Shown one piece after another: positions 5,894 to 11,432 of a stretch of DNA of 64,000 bases; position 1 is the first letter of the stretch, and each line of letters opens with the position of its first letter. The notes under the pieces are model-generated. The model made no database searches. It worked only from the letters and a program-made list of their open reading frames with translations, and was not told where the DNA came from. The position numbers and the translations under genes were made by a program. The stretch covers positions 784 through 64,783 of the forward strand of contig CAZXOC010000003.1 of assembly GCA_964642165.1 (NCBI GenBank), read 5' to 3'. This DNA comes from an uncultured Planctomycetaceae bacterium (lineage in GTDB: Bacteria; Planctomycetota; Phycisphaerae; SM23-33).

Positions 5894-6082
5894 GTCGGGC
5901 AGGGCGACGGCGCGGCGACAGCTTTTTCGTTGACTCCCTGTTGTACGGCGGCGCGTGGCCGTGGTAGGATGATTGCCGTTGGCTACATCTTGTCTTTCTG
6001 GTTCGCGGTGCTGCCCCTTTGGATCGCCTTTGGATCAGTCTCGCGAGACACAACGGCCAGGCCGCTCGGAGTACCTGACATG

Positions 6083-6328
6083 ATGAACATCTACGTTGGC
6101 AACCTTCCCTACAACATGGGCGACGCGGAGCTGGAAGCGGCCTTCGCGGCGTACGGCGCGGTGGACCGCGCCAAGGTGATCGCGGACCGCGAGACGGGGC
6201 GATCCCGCGGGTTCGGCTTTGTCGAGATGCCCAACGATGACGAGGCCCGCGCCGCCATGGAGGCCCTGAACGGGAACGAGATGGACGGTCGGCGGCTGAC
6301 CGTCAACGAAGCGCGTCCGAGGCACTGA
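6083..6328 (+). CDS. RNA-binding protein with a single RRM domain
   Basis: MNIYVGNLPYNMGDAELEAAFAAYGAV..KVIADRETGRSRGFGFVEMPNDDEA..AMEALNG (RNP-2 IYVGNL, RNP-1 RGFGFVEM). The upstream part of the track ORF is spurious. Confidence 0.8.
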   Translation: MNIYVGNLPYNMGDAELEAAFAAYGAVDRAKVIADRETGRSRGFGFVEMPNDDEARAAMEALNGNEMDGRRLTVNEARPRH

Positions 6329-6821
6329 CCGCCCCGCCGCGCGACAGGTCTCGATCGCTCGCCGAGAGCACGGGGGCTGGTTCGCCTGCTGACTGCTCTT
6401 CGGTCACCCTGGCCTGATCTCCGCTTGCCTTGCCGGGCAGCGCCGTATCCCCGTTCAGCCGGCGGCGCTGCTGCCGGTCGCCGGCGATGGCTGCGGGAGC
6501 CGGACGACGTGGCGGGCATGAGGAAGATCGCGCTGGTCGTCTGCTGCGGGCCGGCCCTGCCCGGATGCGGCAGGGAGGACCGCGCCTCCGCCCCGGCCCG
6601 TCGCGGCAAGAAGGGCGTGCCCTTGTCGCCCCCCGCCGGTTGACGCCGCGAAGCTCGTCGGGGTGCTCCGGGAGATCGCCGCACTCGAGCAGCAGGGCGA
6701 GTTCGCCCGGGCGTGGGAACTCGCGCCGGAGCCCGACCGTGGGCCAAGCAGGCCGTAGCGTTTCGGCGGCGAGCTGCGCCTTCGCATTGCCGACCACCTC
6801 GGCTCGTTTCTCGGCAAAGGG

Positions 6822-6990
6822 TTGACAGCTTTGCGGCCGAGGGAATATCATGGCACCGACGATGAATGCAGGCAGGAGACAACGCGGGACGTGGGCGTCG
6901 ACCGGCGAGGGCCGGTGCGCCGGGTCCCTGTCCGTGCTGCTTGTGGTCGTTGTACTATAGGCCGCTGCGCATCGTTCCCCCGCAGCGGCC
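6822..6990 (+). promoter_or_regulatory. Putative ilvBN leader region: promoter-like TTGACA-N18-TATCAT, a short leader ORF ending in SVLLVVVVL*, and a GC hairpin
   Basis: TTGACA at 6822-6827 and TATCAT at about 6846-6851. A small ORF (ATG 6850 or 6862 to TAG 6958-6960) encodes ...GEGRCAGSLSVLLVVVVL*. It is immediately followed by GGCCGCTGCG-catcgttcccc-CGCAGCGGCC (6960-6990). This lies upstream of ilvB. Confidence 0.45.
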
Positions 6991-7124
6991 GTCACCCCGA
7001 TTCGCCCCGGCGCGGGCGGTTTCCCCTTGGGCCTTCGGTGGTCCGCCCCTGGACGAGGGTTTTTCCCGACGGCCGGTGAGTGTACCGTAGTGGCCGTCAT
7101 CGACGAGAGAGGAAGGATGAAGCC

Positions 7125-8843
7125 ATGACCGACAAGAAGGACGACCCGGGCGGCTCGGGCCACCGCGGCTACGCCGACCTGACCGGCGCGCAGATCTTCA
7201 ACGAGATGCTGCTGGAAGAGGGCGTGGAGGTCCTCTTCGGCTTTCCGGGCGGGGCGGTGATTCCGATTTTCGACGTCCTGTACGACTCGCCGCTGAAGTT
7301 CGTGATGTCGCGGCACGAGCAGGGCGCCTGTCACATGGCCGACGGGTACGCCCGCTCGACGGGCAAGACGGGCGCGGTGATCGCCACCAGCGGGCCCGGG
7401 GCGACGAACCTGATCACCGGGCTGGCGACGGCGAACATGGACTCGGTGCCTCTGGTGGCCTTCACGGGCCAGGTCCGCAGCCAGTTGATCGGCAACGACG
7501 CCTTCCAGGAGGCGGACACGACGGGCATCACGCGCCCGATCACGAAGCACAACTTCCTGGTGACGCGCGTGGAGGACCTCGGCCGGACCGTCAAGGAGGC
7601 GTTCCACATCGCCCGGACCGGTCGGCCCGGGCCGGTCGTGGTGGACATCGCGGTGGACGCGACGGTGAACAAGCCCGGCCGGGAACCGGCGATGGAGCCG
7701 GACCTCCCGGGCTACAAGCCGCGCGGGGGCGGTCACATCCGGCAGGTCCGCGCGGCGGCGGCGGCCATCAACGCCGCCGATCACCCGGTGCTGTACGTCG
7801 GCGGCGGCGTGGTGCTGTCGGGGGCGACGGAGGCGCTTCGCGCGGTGGCGCAGAAGGGGCGCATCCCCGTCACGACCACGCTGCTGGGGCTCGGCACGTT
7901 CGACGAGACGGACCCGCTGTCGCTGAGGATGCTGGGGATGCACGGCACGGCGTACGCGAACTACGCCGTGCAGGAGAGCGACTGCCTGGTCGCGGTGGGG
8001 GCGCGGTTCGACGACCGGGTCACCGGCAAGATCGAGGCGTTCGCCCCGAAGGCGAAGATCATCCACGTGGACATCGACCCGGCGAGCATCTCGAAGAACG
8101 TGCCGGTCGACATCCCCGTGGTGGGCGACGCGAAGTACATCCTGGAGAAGCTGCTGGAGCACCTCGAGGCGAAGGAGCGTCCGGCCTGGCACGAGCAGAT
8201 CGCGCAGTGGAAGAAGCTCTACCCGCTCAAGTACGCCCCGGACGGCGGGATCAAGCCGCAGGAGGTCGTGGAGCTCCTGGGCGAGCTGACGAGGCACGAC
8301 GCGATCGTCGCGACGGGCGTGGGACAGCACCAGATGTGGGCGGCGCAGTTCTACGGATGGCGCCGTCCGCGCCAGATCCTCACGTCGGGCGGCCTCGGCA
8401 CGATGGGCTACGGCTGCCCGGCGGCGATCGGGGCGCAGTTCGGCAACCCGGGCGCCACGGTGCTCGACATCGACGGCGACGGGAGCTTCTCGATGACGAT
8501 GGGGGAGGTGATCACGGCCGTGCAGCACGACCTGCCGGTCAAGTTCATCGTGCTGGACAACGGGTACCTCGGCATGGTGCGCCAGTGGCAGGACCTGTTC
8601 TACCACAAGCGGTACTCGGCGGTGGCGCACCCGTGTCCGGACTTCAAGATGGTGGCGGAGGGCTTCGGCGCTCGCGGCATCCGGATCTCGGCGCGGAGCG
8701 AGTTGGCCGACGGGCTGAACGAGGCGCTCAAGCACCCGGGCCCGGTGGTGGTGGCCGTCGAGGTGGAGCCGGAGGAGAACGTCTACCCGATGGTGGCGGC
8801 CGGCAAGGGCCTCCACGAAATGGACCTCGGCAAACTCGCCTGA
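7125..8843 (+). CDS. ilvB: Acetolactate synthase, large (catalytic) subunit
   Basis: RBS GAGAGGAAGG then ATG 7125. MTDKKDD..IFNEMLLEEGVEVLFGFPGGAVIPIFD..SRHEQGACHMADGYAR..GPGATNLITG; TPP-binding region GGLGTMGYGCPAAIGAQ..; about 572 aa. Confidence 0.9.
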   Translation: MTDKKDDPGGSGHRGYADLTGAQIFNEMLLEEGVEVLFGFPGGAVIPIFDVLYDSPLKFVMSRHEQGACHMADGYARSTGKTGAVIATSGPGATNLITGLATANMDSVPLVAFTGQVRSQLIGNDAFQEADTTGITRPITKHNFLVTRVEDLGRTVKEAFHIARTGRPGPVVVDIAVDATVNKPGREPAMEPDLPGYKPRGGGHIRQVRAAAAAINAADHPVLYVGGGVVLSGATEALRAVAQKGRIPVTTTLLGLGTFDETDPLSLRMLGMHGTAYANYAVQESDCLVAVGARFDDRVTGKIEAFAPKAKIIHVDIDPASISKNVPVDIPVVGDAKYILEKLLEHLEAKERPAWHEQIAQWKKLYPLKYAPDGGIKPQEVVELLGELTRHDAIVATGVGQHQMWAAQFYGWRRPRQILTSGGLGTMGYGCPAAIGAQFGNPGATVLDIDGDGSFSMTMGEVITAVQHDLPVKFIVLDNGYLGMVRQWQDLFYHKRYSAVAHPCPDFKMVAEGFGARGIRISARSELADGLNEALKHPGPVVVAVEVEPEENVYPMVAAGKGLHEMDLGKLA

Positions 8844-8867
8844 GCCGCGAAGGAGCGGAGAGCAATC

Positions 8868-9353
8868 ATGAAACACGTGATCATGGCACTGGTTCAGAAT
8901 CAGCCGGGCGTCCTGGCGCACGTGGCCGGCATGTTCGCCGCCCGCGGGTTCAACATCGATTCGCTCGTCGTCGGGCGGACGGAGGACCCGATGTTGTCGC
9001 GGATGACGATCGTGGCCGTCGGGGACGACCGCGTCCTGGAGCAGATCCGCAAGCAGTTGGAGAAGATCGTCACCGTCGTGAAGGTTCGCGACTTCCAGGA
9101 CGTCCGCTACGTCGAGCGCGACCTGATGCTGGTTCGCGTCCACGCCCCCGCGGAGAAGCGCTCGAAGGTGGTGGACCTGGTGACCCTGTTCCGCGGGCGC
9201 GTGGTGGACGTGTCGCGCAAGAGCCTCATCGTGGAGATGTCGGGCCCCGAAGACAAGCTGGAGGCGTTCGTCGACCTGGCGAAGCCCTACGGCATCGGCG
9301 AGCTGGCCCGCACCGGCGTGATCGCGATGAAGCGAGGCACGCAGGCCGACTGA
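8868..9353 (+). CDS. ilvN: Acetolactate synthase, small (regulatory, ACT-domain) subunit
   Basis: MKHVIMALVQNQPGVLAHVAGMFAARGFNIDSLVVGRTEDPMLSRMTIV (ACT domain), 161 aa, 24 nt downstream of ilvB. Confidence 0.85.
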   Translation: MKHVIMALVQNQPGVLAHVAGMFAARGFNIDSLVVGRTEDPMLSRMTIVAVGDDRVLEQIRKQLEKIVTVVKVRDFQDVRYVERDLMLVRVHAPAEKRSKVVDLVTLFRGRVVDVSRKSLIVEMSGPEDKLEAFVDLAKPYGIGELARTGVIAMKRGTQAD

Positions 9354-9410
9354 GACGAAGGGCGGATCGCCCGGGACGAGCAGCTTGGCAAGGCATAGGG
9401 AGCGACACCC

Positions 9411-10307
9411 ATGGGCGACGAGAAGGTGAAGGTGTTGTTCGACACGGACATCGGCAGCGACATCGACGACGCGGTGGCGCTGGCGTACCTGCTGAGCCAG
9501 GATCGCTGCGAGCTGCTGGGCGTCACGACCGTCACCGGCGAGCCGGAGCGGCGCGCGGAGATGGTATCGGCCATCTGCCGCCACGTCGGGCGCGACGACG
9601 TGCCGATCCACGCCGGCTGCCCGCAGGCGATGCTGATCGAGATGCGCCAGAAGACCGCCCCGCAGGCCGCGGCGCTGGGCGAGTGGGACCGGCGGAGCGA
9701 CTTCGCCGCCGGCACGGCCATCGAGTTCCTCCGCGAGACGATCCGCGCGCACCCGGGCGAGGTGACGCTGCTGGCCGTCGGGCCGCTGACCAACGTCGGC
9801 CTGCTGTTCGCGACGGACCCGGCGCTCCCGGCCATGCTGAAGCAGCTCGTCCTGATGTGCGGGCGCTTCTTCCGCGGCACGGGCGGCGAATGGAACGCCG
9901 GCGGCGACCCGCATGCCACCGCGATCGCCTACGGCAACGGCCAGCAGGCCCGCCCGCCGCGCCAAATCAGCTTCGGGCTCGACGTGACCACCCGCTGCAT
10001 GATGGACGCCGACGCCTGCCGAGAGAAGTTCGCCGCCAAGGCGCTCGAGCCCGTCCGCGACTTCGCCGAGGTCTGGTTCCGGAAGCACGACCGCATCTGC
10101 TTCCACGACCCGCTCGCCGCGGCGTGCGTCTTCCAGGGCGACCTGTGTCGGTACCGCGACGGCTGCGTCACCGTCTCCCTGACGCCGCCGACGATGGGCT
10201 GGACCGTCTTCGACGCCAGCGCCGAGGACGACCGGAAACCCCACACCGTCGCTTGCGAGGTCGATCCCGACGCCTTCTTCGCGCACTACTTCGACGTCGT
10301 GACGTGA
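9411..10307 (+). CDS. Inosine-uridine preferring nucleoside hydrolase family protein
   Basis: N-terminal aspartate cluster VLFDTDIGSDIDDAVALAYLL (DxDxxxDD fingerprint of IU-NH), about 298 aa. Confidence 0.8.
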   Translation: MGDEKVKVLFDTDIGSDIDDAVALAYLLSQDRCELLGVTTVTGEPERRAEMVSAICRHVGRDDVPIHAGCPQAMLIEMRQKTAPQAAALGEWDRRSDFAAGTAIEFLRETIRAHPGEVTLLAVGPLTNVGLLFATDPALPAMLKQLVLMCGRFFRGTGGEWNAGGDPHATAIAYGNGQQARPPRQISFGLDVTTRCMMDADACREKFAAKALEPVRDFAEVWFRKHDRICFHDPLAAACVFQGDLCRYRDGCVTVSLTPPTMGWTVFDASAEDDRKPHTVACEVDPDAFFAHYFDVVT

Positions 10308-10457
10308 CGTGCCCGCGCACGGTCTCGCGGTACTCCGCCTCGGTCGGCTCGTCGCCGGCGCGAAGCCGCCTCGCCGGGGCGTGCTGCCCACATAGGGCTT
10401 GACAGCCGGGAAGGTCTGGGGGACAGTGTGCGGCCTTGCACTCGTTCCCGGCTGGAT

Positions 10458-10988
10458 ATGGGCAAGCAGAAGAAGAAAGACCGGTCCGCTCCGCTGCCGT
10501 ACGTGGCGCTGGTCCTGGCCTGCGCGATTCCCGGGGCGGGGCACGTCTACCTCGGTCGGATCAAGCGGGGGATCATCCTGTTCGTGACGATCACGGCGCT
10601 GTTCTGGTCGGGCGTGGGCATCGGGGGCGTGATGACGGTCGATTCGCAGCGCGAACGGTGGTGGTTCGTCGCGCAGGTGTTCACGGGGGTGCACGGCGTG
10701 ATCGCCTGGCAGCGCCAGCGGCGCGTGCACGACAGACTGGTGTCCGGCAAGCGCCTGGACCTCCGCGACCGGTACGACCAGGACGTCCTGGATGCCAAGC
10801 TCCAGGCGGAGGGCCTCGCGCTGGTCGCCCCGGCGGACACGGTGGCCCGCGCGTACTCGGGCGTGGCCGGGCTGCTGAACCTGATGTGCGTCTTCGACGC
10901 CCTGATGCTCTCGATCATGGGTGTCACGGGCGAAAGCCCGCGCGGGAAGGACGGCTCCGAGCAGTCCGGGAAGGCCAGGGACGCATGA
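10458..10988 (+). CDS. Small integral membrane protein (hypothetical)
   Basis: MGKQKKKDRSAPLPYVALVLACAIPGAGHVYLGRIKRGIILFVTITALFWSGVGIGGV.. gives two predicted TM helices. The start at 10458 is in frame with the track ORF starting at 10428. Confidence 0.45.
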   Translation: MGKQKKKDRSAPLPYVALVLACAIPGAGHVYLGRIKRGIILFVTITALFWSGVGIGGVMTVDSQRERWWFVAQVFTGVHGVIAWQRQRRVHDRLVSGKRLDLRDRYDQDVLDAKLQAEGLALVAPADTVARAYSGVAGLLNLMCVFDALMLSIMGVTGESPRGKDGSEQSGKARDA

Positions 10989-11209
10989 CCGCGTGGAGCC
11001 TGTTCTACAAGCCGATCCTGCTGAGCTTCGACAGCGAGCTGTGGCTGCTGCTGCCGCTGTGCTTCGCCGTCGCCCTGGTCTACAAGACCATCCGGATCGG
11101 CGAGCTGCGGCGGCTGCCGCGCGAGATGGCCTTCGTGATGGCCTACATCGTGGTCGGCCTGATCGCCCTGTGCGTGGGGCTCTGGCTGGTCCAGGAGTAC
11201 TGGCCATGA
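10985..11209 (+). CDS. Small membrane protein (hypothetical), translationally coupled to the upstream gene
   Basis: ATGA start/stop overlap (ATG 10985 / TGA 10986-10988). MTAWSLFYKPILLSFDSELWLLLPLCFAVALVY...MAYIVVGLIALCVGLWLV; 74 aa; two hydrophobic helices. Confidence 0.4.
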   Translation: MTAWSLFYKPILLSFDSELWLLLPLCFAVALVYKTIRIGELRRLPREMAFVMAYIVVGLIALCVGLWLVQEYWP

Positions 11210-11432
11210 TCTGACGCCCCGCCTGCGCCCGGCGCAGCCGCCGCGCGGCGTCCTCCCCGGCCTGTTCGCGAGCCCCGGCCAGCCCGGCCAGCCCCGGCGC
11301 CCCGGCCCCGCTTGCGAGGGTCCCCACCGGCCGGCCGATCCGGCCCGTTTGAATTCCCACTTTTCCCGCACCTAGAATATGGCACGGACGTAGATAGAGA
11401 AGGAGGCCGCTTTCGAGAGCCCGAGGACGTCT

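Follow-up and report, generated by a model that had tools for sequence, protein, structure and literature searches.

The enterobacterial leaders of ilvBN (ivbL), ilvGMEDA (ilvL) and leu (leuL) contain runs of Val and Leu codons, the leu leader relying on the rare CUA codon, and combine a leader open reading frame (ORF) that is preceded by a Shine-Dalgarno (SD) sequence with the canonical 1:2/2:3/3:4 structures and a strong intrinsic terminator. Leaders of the tnaC and mgtL type control Rho-dependent termination, and sense free Trp, or Pro and Mg2+, via the nascent peptide or proline codons. Attenuators based on an upstream ORF (uORF) of ilvB have been studied experimentally in Corynebacterium and Mycobacterium (PMC10272879, PMC11857589, PMC13236596) and predicted in other Actinobacteria (PMC1262725). 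The control codons of the C. glutamicum ilvB leader are the rare CUU and GUA (PMC11857589), and in M. tuberculosis the ilvB1 uORF, with LVVI as its control codons, precedes a Rho-independent terminator (PMC10272879, PMC11857589, PMC13236596, PMC1262725). In addition, the Leptospira ilvB and ilvB-OMG RNA motifs have been reinterpreted as uORFs, their function being inferred (PMC10272879). Here we analyse the region upstream of ilvBN in a 64-kb stretch of DNA (the window; 71% GC) from an uncultured Planctomycetaceae bacterium (contig CAZXOC010000003.1). An initial annotation of this DNA had proposed that a Val/Leu-rich leader peptide and a GC hairpin form a transcription attenuator at this place, and had considered such attenuators little documented outside Proteobacteria and Firmicutes. 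The latter statement was wrong, because the actinobacterial, Leptospira and ilvB-OMG cases exist. For Planctomycetota, the literature that we searched describes no leader-peptide attenuator.

The leader ORF upstream of ilvBN

Our results suggest that the DNA immediately 5' of ilvB encodes a ribosome-mediated leader that senses branched-chain amino acids (BCAA) and controls the ilvBN operon, with premature termination of transcription as its most likely output; we place the probability of this reading at roughly 0.6. On sequence grounds the BCAA-sensing leader peptide itself is well supported, because the Val/Leu run is unique, its codons are rare, and the promoter, the ATG, the ORF, the run, the TAG stop and the hairpin that follows (P1) are conserved. 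Unless otherwise stated, the features described below lie on the + strand of the window.

The leader ORF (6862..6960) comprises 32 codons plus the TAG stop at 6958-6960 and encodes the peptide MNAGRRQRGTWASTGEGRCAGSLSVLLVVVVL, whose C-terminal part is GEGRCAGSLSVLLVVVVL (...SLSVLLVVVVL). It closes with the codon run GTG CTG CTT GTG GTC GTT GTA CTA (V L L V V V V L; 6934..6957), which means that all of the last eight sense codons, and not seven as first counted, specify Val or Leu, the end products of the pathway served by ilvBN. When the 1282 stop codons with 8 open codons before them were collected from the six frames of the window, just this one was preceded by at least 7 Val, Leu or Ile codons out of 8. 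Moreover, GTT, GTA, CTA and CTT account for only 2.8%, 2.4%, 0.6% and 3.5% of their synonymous usage, respectively (baseline: 27 high-GC3 ORFs of the window, 16,325 codons), and since none exceeds 3.5%, four of the last seven sense codons are very rare. Three leader peptides were compared with Pfam and NCBIfam, and no family was matched at E values up to 10. Two overlapping ORFs (6866-7090, in the +1 frame, and 6822-7079) were discarded, their starts being absent in relatives.

The ORF is preceded by a sigma-70-type promoter (6822..6851), with a TTGACA -35 hexamer at 6822-6827, an 18-nt spacer and a TATCAT -10 hexamer at 6846-6851. This promoter, already pointed out in the initial annotation, fits at 11 of 12 positions, whereas shuffled versions of the region yield 0.0 matches. 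Judged from its position, transcription would start around 6857-6860, 6-8 nt past the -10 hexamer, and the 5' untranslated region of the leader ORF would therefore measure just 2-5 nt, making the ORF nearly leaderless, as had also been proposed. Two in-frame ATG codons, at 6850 and 6862, had been offered as starts. ATG 6862 is the one shared with relatives, which have an ATG 7-10 nt past the -10 hexamer; ATG 6850 lies within the hexamer and is not conserved. Note that a small terminator-like hairpin, GCCGACCACCTCGGC followed by TCGTTTCTCG, is found just 5' of the promoter (6789-6803).

To place these features in an evolutionary context we compared 14 distinct leaders: those of the window, L081, L082, L085, L086, L087, L089, L090, L092, L093, L097, L098, L103 and L104, 13 of which were used in several of the alignment and pairing tests. 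They came from the DNA upstream of several IlvB homologues and from one metagenome scan with the conserved core TTGTACKWTAGGYCGYTRCGC. The closest homologues of the IlvB protein are metagenomic proteins labelled Phycisphaerae or Planctomycetota, with identities from 98% to about 72%; all 14 leaders are located 5' of ilvB, and the IlvB proteins of the relatives are 72-98% identical to that of the window. The leader region of another locus, L094, is identical to that of the window across the 431 nt compared. A promoter of the form TTGAC(A/T)-N16-19-TAnnnT is found at the same place in 14/14 leaders, and the near-leaderless geometry, with an in-frame ATG 7-10 nt past the -10 hexamer, is kept in 13 of them (it is lost in L081). 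The similarity between the window and L081 starts only about 20 nt before the -35 hexamer; the conserved block therefore begins at the promoter.

The conservation extends to the peptide. Most leaders encode 30-37 residues (30-34 in 10 of them), the outliers being L090 (41), L092 (44) and the 8-codon mini-ORF of L081, and they share the C-terminal motif [SA]xLL(V)4[LR]. The TAG stop is at its conserved position in 13/14 leaders; that of L090 reads on into the hairpin. The frame, start, length, BCAA run and stop are also kept in a low-GC relative, L087, and in one relative the leader ORF was annotated as a 31-aa gene by its source. Counting back from the stop in 13 leaders, codon positions -7 to -2 specify a BCAA in 73 of 78 cells, with seven distinct codons used at each of positions -7 to -5. 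Position -3 is GTT, CTT, ATT or GTG, and first- and third-base changes there thus keep a BCAA. As judged from these substitutions, the reading of the ORF as codons is supported: BCAA identity survives both synonymous changes and the interchange of Val, Leu and Ile. GUAC and UAGG are invariant as nucleotides, even where the last residue alternates between Leu and Arg, which points to an additional constraint at the RNA level.

The ORF also contains a hairpin (6894..6921; core CCGGC 6902-6906 / GCCGG 6911-6915; -20.8 kcal/mol, z-score -2.3), which recurs in the mapped ensemble of 13 leaders; structure prediction leaves it as possibly a pause or synchronising hairpin. A nucleotide box, G(C/G)GACA(A/G), encoding R/G-Q, is conserved about 15-25 nt past the leader ATG (6877-6890 in the window) and is predicted to pair with GUCCC just 5' of the Leu/Val run, at the base of this hairpin.

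Conservation of the leader ORF 5' of ilvB in related genomes, which had been suggested as a check, is observed in the 14 distinct leaders and, in diverged form, in L004 and L036. L004 belongs to a Tepidisphaerales metagenome-assembled genome (MAG) and was found by a covariance model of the core, which scores 78.5 bits for the window and 20.4 bits for L004. Its leader (2700-2760) encodes MMTTLRPSTPLPVVVR and ends in ...GUC GUA CGA UAG G, with a hairpin after the stop. L036, from a Phycisphaeraceae MAG (2740-2835), has the promoter version TTGACC-N17-TATACT, an ATG 10 nt further on, which again gives a near-leaderless geometry, the peptide MFASTHLLLVVAVS and a hairpin directly past the stop. Finally, the Sedimentisphaerales locus L003 (2700-2790) carries a candidate BCAA-rich leader ORF ending in ...VLVLVLLWFK. 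These three loci represent other Phycisphaerae orders, and their BCAA-rich leader ORFs 5' of ilvB are different and shorter. The leader was not found in L105 (75% IlvB identity) nor in most loci with IlvB identity of 61% or less; a scan of genome contigs returned, among the matches listed, only relatives with an IlvB identity of at most 61%. From this distribution the leader seems to be characteristic of Phycisphaerae at the level of the class, in versions that differ between lineages.

The hairpin on the stop codon and the proposed mechanism

The G of the TAG stop codon is the first base of P1 (6960..6990), the 10-bp hairpin that had been noticed beside the stop and that we confirm: a perfect stem formed by the 5' arm GGCCGCTGCG (6960-6969) and the 3' arm CGCAGCGGCC (6981-6990), enclosing a loop at 6970-6980. 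Its predicted stability is -21.3 kcal/mol (z-score -4.08), and none of 200 shuffles folds as well. P1 starts 164 nt before ilvB in the window, and at the stop-codon G in 13/14 leaders. Across 13 leaders 99.3% of the cells are paired; five of the pairs are the same in every leader, four show changes on a single side (from G-U to G-C or A-U) and the remaining one on both. P1 is the sole helix in the RNAalifold consensus of a MAFFT alignment. Its loop varies freely in sequence and length, and its two conserved G-U pairs fit an RNA acting on the + strand.

Since P1 directly adjoins the stop codon, it must be affected by where the ribosome is. The protection given by a ribosome extends about 12 nt 3' of its A-site codon, and RNA is unwound up to about +11 from the P site. 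Calculated on this general geometry, the ribosome would reach 6961-6967 when its A-site codon is GUU, GUA or CUA, and about 6970 when it is on UAG; P1 is therefore placed to report ribosome position. We propose the following sequence of events. Transcription would start a few bases before ATG 6862, and the 32-codon ORF would be translated from an almost leaderless mRNA. When charged Val- or Leu-tRNA is scarce, the ribosome would dwell on the last rare codons (GTT GTA CTA), and its footprint, extending about 12 nt past the A site, would cover the 5' arm of P1 and free the 3' arm. With a good supply it would terminate at the TAG and leave, allowing P1 (-21 kcal/mol) to form. The ribosome position would thereby select one of two folds of the 164-nt spacer, and transcription would end prematurely in the spacer under repletion and be relieved by stalling. 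Termination would occur either at an irregular hairpin followed by U5 (7024-7064) or via Rho on a C-rich tract (6991-7067). The stalling, the identity of the 'on' fold and the type of output are all features that we infer.

The same data could be read without an amino-acid sensor, the ORF being incidental or encoding a hydrophobic peptide with a function of its own, or the hairpin being an RNA element that binds a protein or a ligand or is processed. The P1 stem is nearly invariant, its two G-U pairs included, with a free loop, a degree of constraint beyond that required of a plain hairpin; GUAC and UAGG stay unchanged despite the Leu/Arg change; and at 71% GC a genome has many open frames of 30 codons. 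Against this stand the conservation of frame, start, length, BCAA run and stop, even in the low-GC L087, and the codon changes that keep BCAA identity. In addition, the element is always 5' of ilvB, a hydrophobic tail of 8 residues is too short for a membrane helix, and no Rfam match to ilvB-controlling riboswitches was obtained. We consider a non-sensory element very improbable.

The spacer and the candidate outputs

The spacer between P1 and ilvB has an order common to the relatives: a C-rich linker, the hairpin P2, a CU-rich tract, a variable hairpin with a G-run and then a U-run, an element that we call f, the hairpin P4 and the SD sequence. The linker CACCCCGAUUC is conserved (CACUCCGAUUC-like in relatives) and opens a C-rich segment (6991..7067) in which C exceeds G. 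P2 is a small GC hairpin (7003-7007/7014-7018) of ordinary stability (z-score +0.6), followed by the CU-rich tract UUUCCCCUU at 7020-7028 (UUCCCCUU in relatives). P2 and the CU tract were rejected as a terminator, since the tail in most relatives is rich in C, not U, and the stability of P2 is ordinary. The terminator-like element (7024..7064) consists of an irregular hairpin, CCCUUG 7024-7029 / CGAGGG 7054-7059, and the UUUUU tail 7060-7064; the GGGTTTTTCCC sequence that the initial annotation had reported before the ilvB ribosome-binding site is indeed present, at 7057-7067. Element f (GACGGCCGGUGAGUGUAC, 7068-7085) is part of a larger segment (7068..7098), and its CGGCCGAU-type motif (CGGCCGAUGGUAC-like) is conserved about 45-58 nt before the ilvB ATG. 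P4 is a local hairpin (7068-7074/7092-7098) of -17.1 kcal/mol whose z-score of -2.8 is better than chance. The ribosome-binding site AGGAAGGA (7110-7117) and the start ATG (7125-7127) of ilvB complete the region. An internal promoter near f was dismissed, its -35/-10 spacing being, by eye, inconsistent among relatives.

An intrinsic terminator is one candidate for the output. A stem followed by at least three U occurs at the equivalent site in 11/13 leaders, and in L082 it is predicted to be a good terminator; runs of five T are scarce in the window, numbering 8 in the 128 kb of its two strands. If the 5' arm of P1 is masked, as a stalled ribosome would mask it, the 5' half of the terminator stem is predicted, in 6-7 of the 13 leaders, to pair with the loop or 3' arm of P1 before the 3' half of that stem has been transcribed. 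The probability of this antiterminator-like pairing with the arm masked was 0.99 in L082, 0.77 in L085, 0.74 in L092 and 0.67 in L089.

The composition of the spacer brings in a second candidate, in which the same sensor would govern Rho in the manner of tna or mgtA. Once the leader ribosome has left, Rho would load between P1 and f and terminate before or within ilvB, and a ribosome stalled beside P1, or the refolding that results, would hinder its loading. The C-rich spacer is a candidate rut region: the C/G ratio between P1 and f exceeds 1 over about 77-105 nt in 11/13 leaders, and it falls below 1 in the flanks (the leader ORF, the segment from f to the ATG and the 5' end of ilvB). The CU-rich linker and tract are conserved, and the genome, at 71% GC, shows no enrichment of canonical intrinsic terminators. 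On the other hand, the ratio in the window is just 1.15, the C-rich tract is predicted to be largely base-paired, and a stalled ribosome would cover only its edge. A Rho-dependent output of this kind strikes us as unlikely.

The initial annotation had envisaged alternative terminator and antiterminator structures. The Val/Leu leader peptide and the hairpin of the proposed attenuator are borne out; such alternative structures are not well supported, and equilibrium folding gives no clean switch, either of termination or of masking of the SD. The whole-leader fold is no stabler than shuffles (z-score -0.64), and an equilibrium terminator switch triggered by masking the 5' arm of P1 was rejected because the changes were small or inconsistent. 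The leader end GUACUAUAGGUCG as a long-range partner of f was also set aside: f is the best partner in 6-7 of the 14 leaders, which is not significant overall, the exception being L098, where 12/13 bases pair, significantly in this leader only and with some changes that are compensatory by eye.

Control of translation was considered as a further output of the same sensor. In this model the ilvB ribosome-binding site would be masked under repletion and opened by a ribosome stalled at the leader end; the candidate masks are U5CC (7060-7066), pairing with AGGAAGGA at 7110-7117 via P4, and the Val/Leu run, pairing with the ilvB start. In favour of this model, blocking the region of the run raises the predicted accessibility of the SD and AUG specifically in 8/14 leaders (from 0.24 to 0.57 in the window), and in the mapped ensemble a helix joining the run to the ilvB start is predicted repeatedly. 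The tail of the U-run also complements the SD (CGUUCC:GGAACG in L086, UUUGGCC:GGUCAAA in L098, -7.5 kcal/mol in the window), and translational attenuation by leaderless uORFs is reported for mycobacteria in work cited in PMC13236596. Yet the pairing of the run with the ilvB start region, despite its recurrence in predictions, did not survive comparison with controls: the duplex between the run and the translation initiation region (TIR), at -22 kcal/mol, is ordinary relative to random genomic 44-mers (mean -23.1), to 33 other putative start regions and to shuffles. Comparison of matched with mismatched pairs gave p = 0.057 for run:TIR and p about 0.07 for tail:SD. An SD-accessibility switch by masking the 5' arm of P1 alone was likewise rejected, the accessibility being unchanged (mean 0.46 vs 0.48). 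Translational control is, in our opinion, an improbable output.

Element f raises yet another possibility. Its sequence complements that of the last codons, of the stop and of the base of the hairpin, and besides contributing to P4 it is predicted to be able to pair with 6983-6993 in the P1 3' arm or with 6952-6964 at the leader end. The leader might then be a leaderless-uORF sensor that lacks a classical terminator and antiterminator, in which P1 and the distal element f (CGGCCGAUGGUAC) constitute a long-range switch acting via Rho, translation or RNA stability, in a phylum with seemingly few canonical intrinsic terminators. We regard this architecture as possible, if rather doubtful; if true, it would represent a distinct architectural class of amino-acid attenuator.

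Returning to the BCAA sensor with premature termination, several observations weigh against it. Some of them concern the terminator: the hairpin before U5 (-15.0 kcal/mol, z-score +0.6) is no stabler than its shuffles, two relatives have no U-run, and canonical terminators made of a hairpin and a T-run are not above shuffles in the first 40 kb of the window (10 against 6.8 expected, and 8 against 5.5). Others concern the switch. When the 5' arm of P1 is masked, the probability that the terminator 3' arm is paired in the window goes from 0.89 to 0.76, and the antiterminator-like pairing of the P1 3' arm with the CU tract is transient there (0.56 at position 7040 and 0.00 at 7053). A conserved alternative partner of the P1 3' arm was sought and discarded, since the best partners scatter from P2 to f with energies no better than shuffles; the pairing 6983-6993 : 7068-7078 is strong in the window (-20.4 kcal/mol) and is lineage-specific, not conserved. 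The covariation of P1 is not significant (88 of 500 shuffles reach it, 13 leaders), which is because the stem sequence is nearly invariant, and this degree of sequence invariance exceeds what a simple hairpin role explains. Moreover, stalling at the first codons of the Val/Leu run would leave the ribosome short of P1, and by analogy with what has been proposed for M. tuberculosis the logic may be the opposite, P1 being the 'on' fold that the terminating ribosome melts.

The L081 leader also counts against the proposal. Its IlvB is 98% identical to that of the window, and its -10 hexamer has changed from TATCAT to TACTAG, with both leader ATGs lost. The remainder of the leader is nearly identical to that of the window (L081:340-480), and the GTG just before LLVVVVL has become ATG, giving the 8-codon ORF MLLVVVVL. 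This variant could reflect decay, an assembly error or a compensated start. The mini-ORF in turn suggests, from its sequence, that translation of the Val/Leu run itself is what matters.

Taken together, intrinsic termination, Rho-dependent termination and translational control are all possible outputs of the leader. Premature termination by the first two combined, with the intrinsic site at 7024-7064 placed slightly ahead of Rho acting on the C-rich tract, has in our estimation close to an even chance of being correct, translational control and other outputs sharing the rest.

The controlled genes and comparison with known systems

The leader ORF lies between the promoter and ilvB on the same strand, and is probably co-transcribed with ilvB. 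ilvB (7125-8843; Pfam TPP_enzyme_N/M/C) and ilvN (8868-9353; Pfam ALS_ss_C and ACT) encode the large and small subunits of acetohydroxyacid synthase (AHAS), and their synteny is seen in relatives. A gene for an inosine-uridine nucleoside hydrolase (Pfam IU_nuc_hydro; 9411-10307) directly follows ilvN, as it also does in L081, L082, L085 and L089. There is no ilvC after ilvN, so the operon is ilvB-ilvN-nucleoside hydrolase and not ilvBNC. IlvB has a low-complexity N-terminal extension of about 18 residues (MTDKKDDPGGSGHRGY...; 7125-7180) before the conserved AHAS fold; it varies among relatives and remains rich in D, K, Q, E, N and T. Its GAC, AAG and CAG codons complement Val/Leu codons, and the predicted pairing with the leader run is no better than genomic controls. 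On the - strand, an open frame of 1685 codons (6303-11360) runs antisense to ilvB, ilvN and the hydrolase gene, and is most likely a shadow ORF typical of 71% GC DNA and not a gene. A GC hairpin, GGCCGGCCGATCCGGCC, followed by a promoter-like TTGAAT-N18-TAGAAT (11329-11378), may from its sequence mark a terminator/promoter junction 3' of the ilv cluster.

The sequence evidence describes a conserved, unannotated cis-regulatory leader, a lineage-specific member of the known leader-peptide attenuators that is novel for Planctomycetota. Some of its traits are unusual: the near-leaderless uORF, the rare-codon BCAA run at the C-terminus, the near-invariant hairpin on the stop codon and the lack of a clear canonical terminator. 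Cis-regulation in Planctomycetota is almost unexplored, and the leader provides a concrete, conserved and testable example; it also points to a small ORF missing from the annotation and to a family that Rfam does not contain. In a genome without obvious intrinsic terminators, its output could show how high-GC bacteria achieve premature termination or translational control. Rfam 15 gave no match over 6000-8000 even at E values up to 10, and none at gathering score in the 64 kb.

The leader resembles those of tnaC and mgtL in the ribosome arrest proposed for the end of the ORF, beside a C-rich untranslated spacer; those systems control Rho-dependent termination, while here a role of Rho is only suggested, by the C>G tract. 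With ivbL, ilvL and leuL it shares the Val/Leu runs, the rare codons as sensitive sites and the same enzyme, AHAS; its peptide matches no Pfam or NCBIfam leader-peptide family, and no Rfam leader family is matched either. Like the ilvB-OMG and Leptospira motifs, it is a lineage-specific conserved RNA 5' of ilvB with an in-frame start and stop and BCAA-rich codons, although it differs from both in sequence and structure, has no Rfam match and belongs to another phylum.

The likeness to the actinobacterial ilvB(N)C attenuators covers several features. In both cases the organism is GC-rich and a short Leu/Val/Ile-rich uORF is located directly 5' of ilvB, where the transcript begins or close to that point (by prediction in our case), with the rare CUU and GUA among the control codons. 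Both have a leader of about 160-170 nt and a hairpin near the uORF stop whose fate is tied to ribosome position, the tie being a proposal in our case. Nevertheless, no similarity in sequence or by covariance model was found to these attenuators, among them the three-hairpin Corynebacterium ilvB-II leader and M. tuberculosis ilvB1. For them, a Rho-independent terminator complete with U-tract and an antiterminator that overlaps it have been demonstrated, whereas the leader described here has a weak terminator-like element and no conserved antiterminator that could be defined. Its peptide is also longer, at about 32 aa, and carries the BCAA run at its extreme C-terminal end; its hairpin begins with the last base of the stop codon and hardly varies in sequence. 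The leader extends the uORF control of ilvB, as suggested by Narunsky et al. (PMC10272879), to another phylum.

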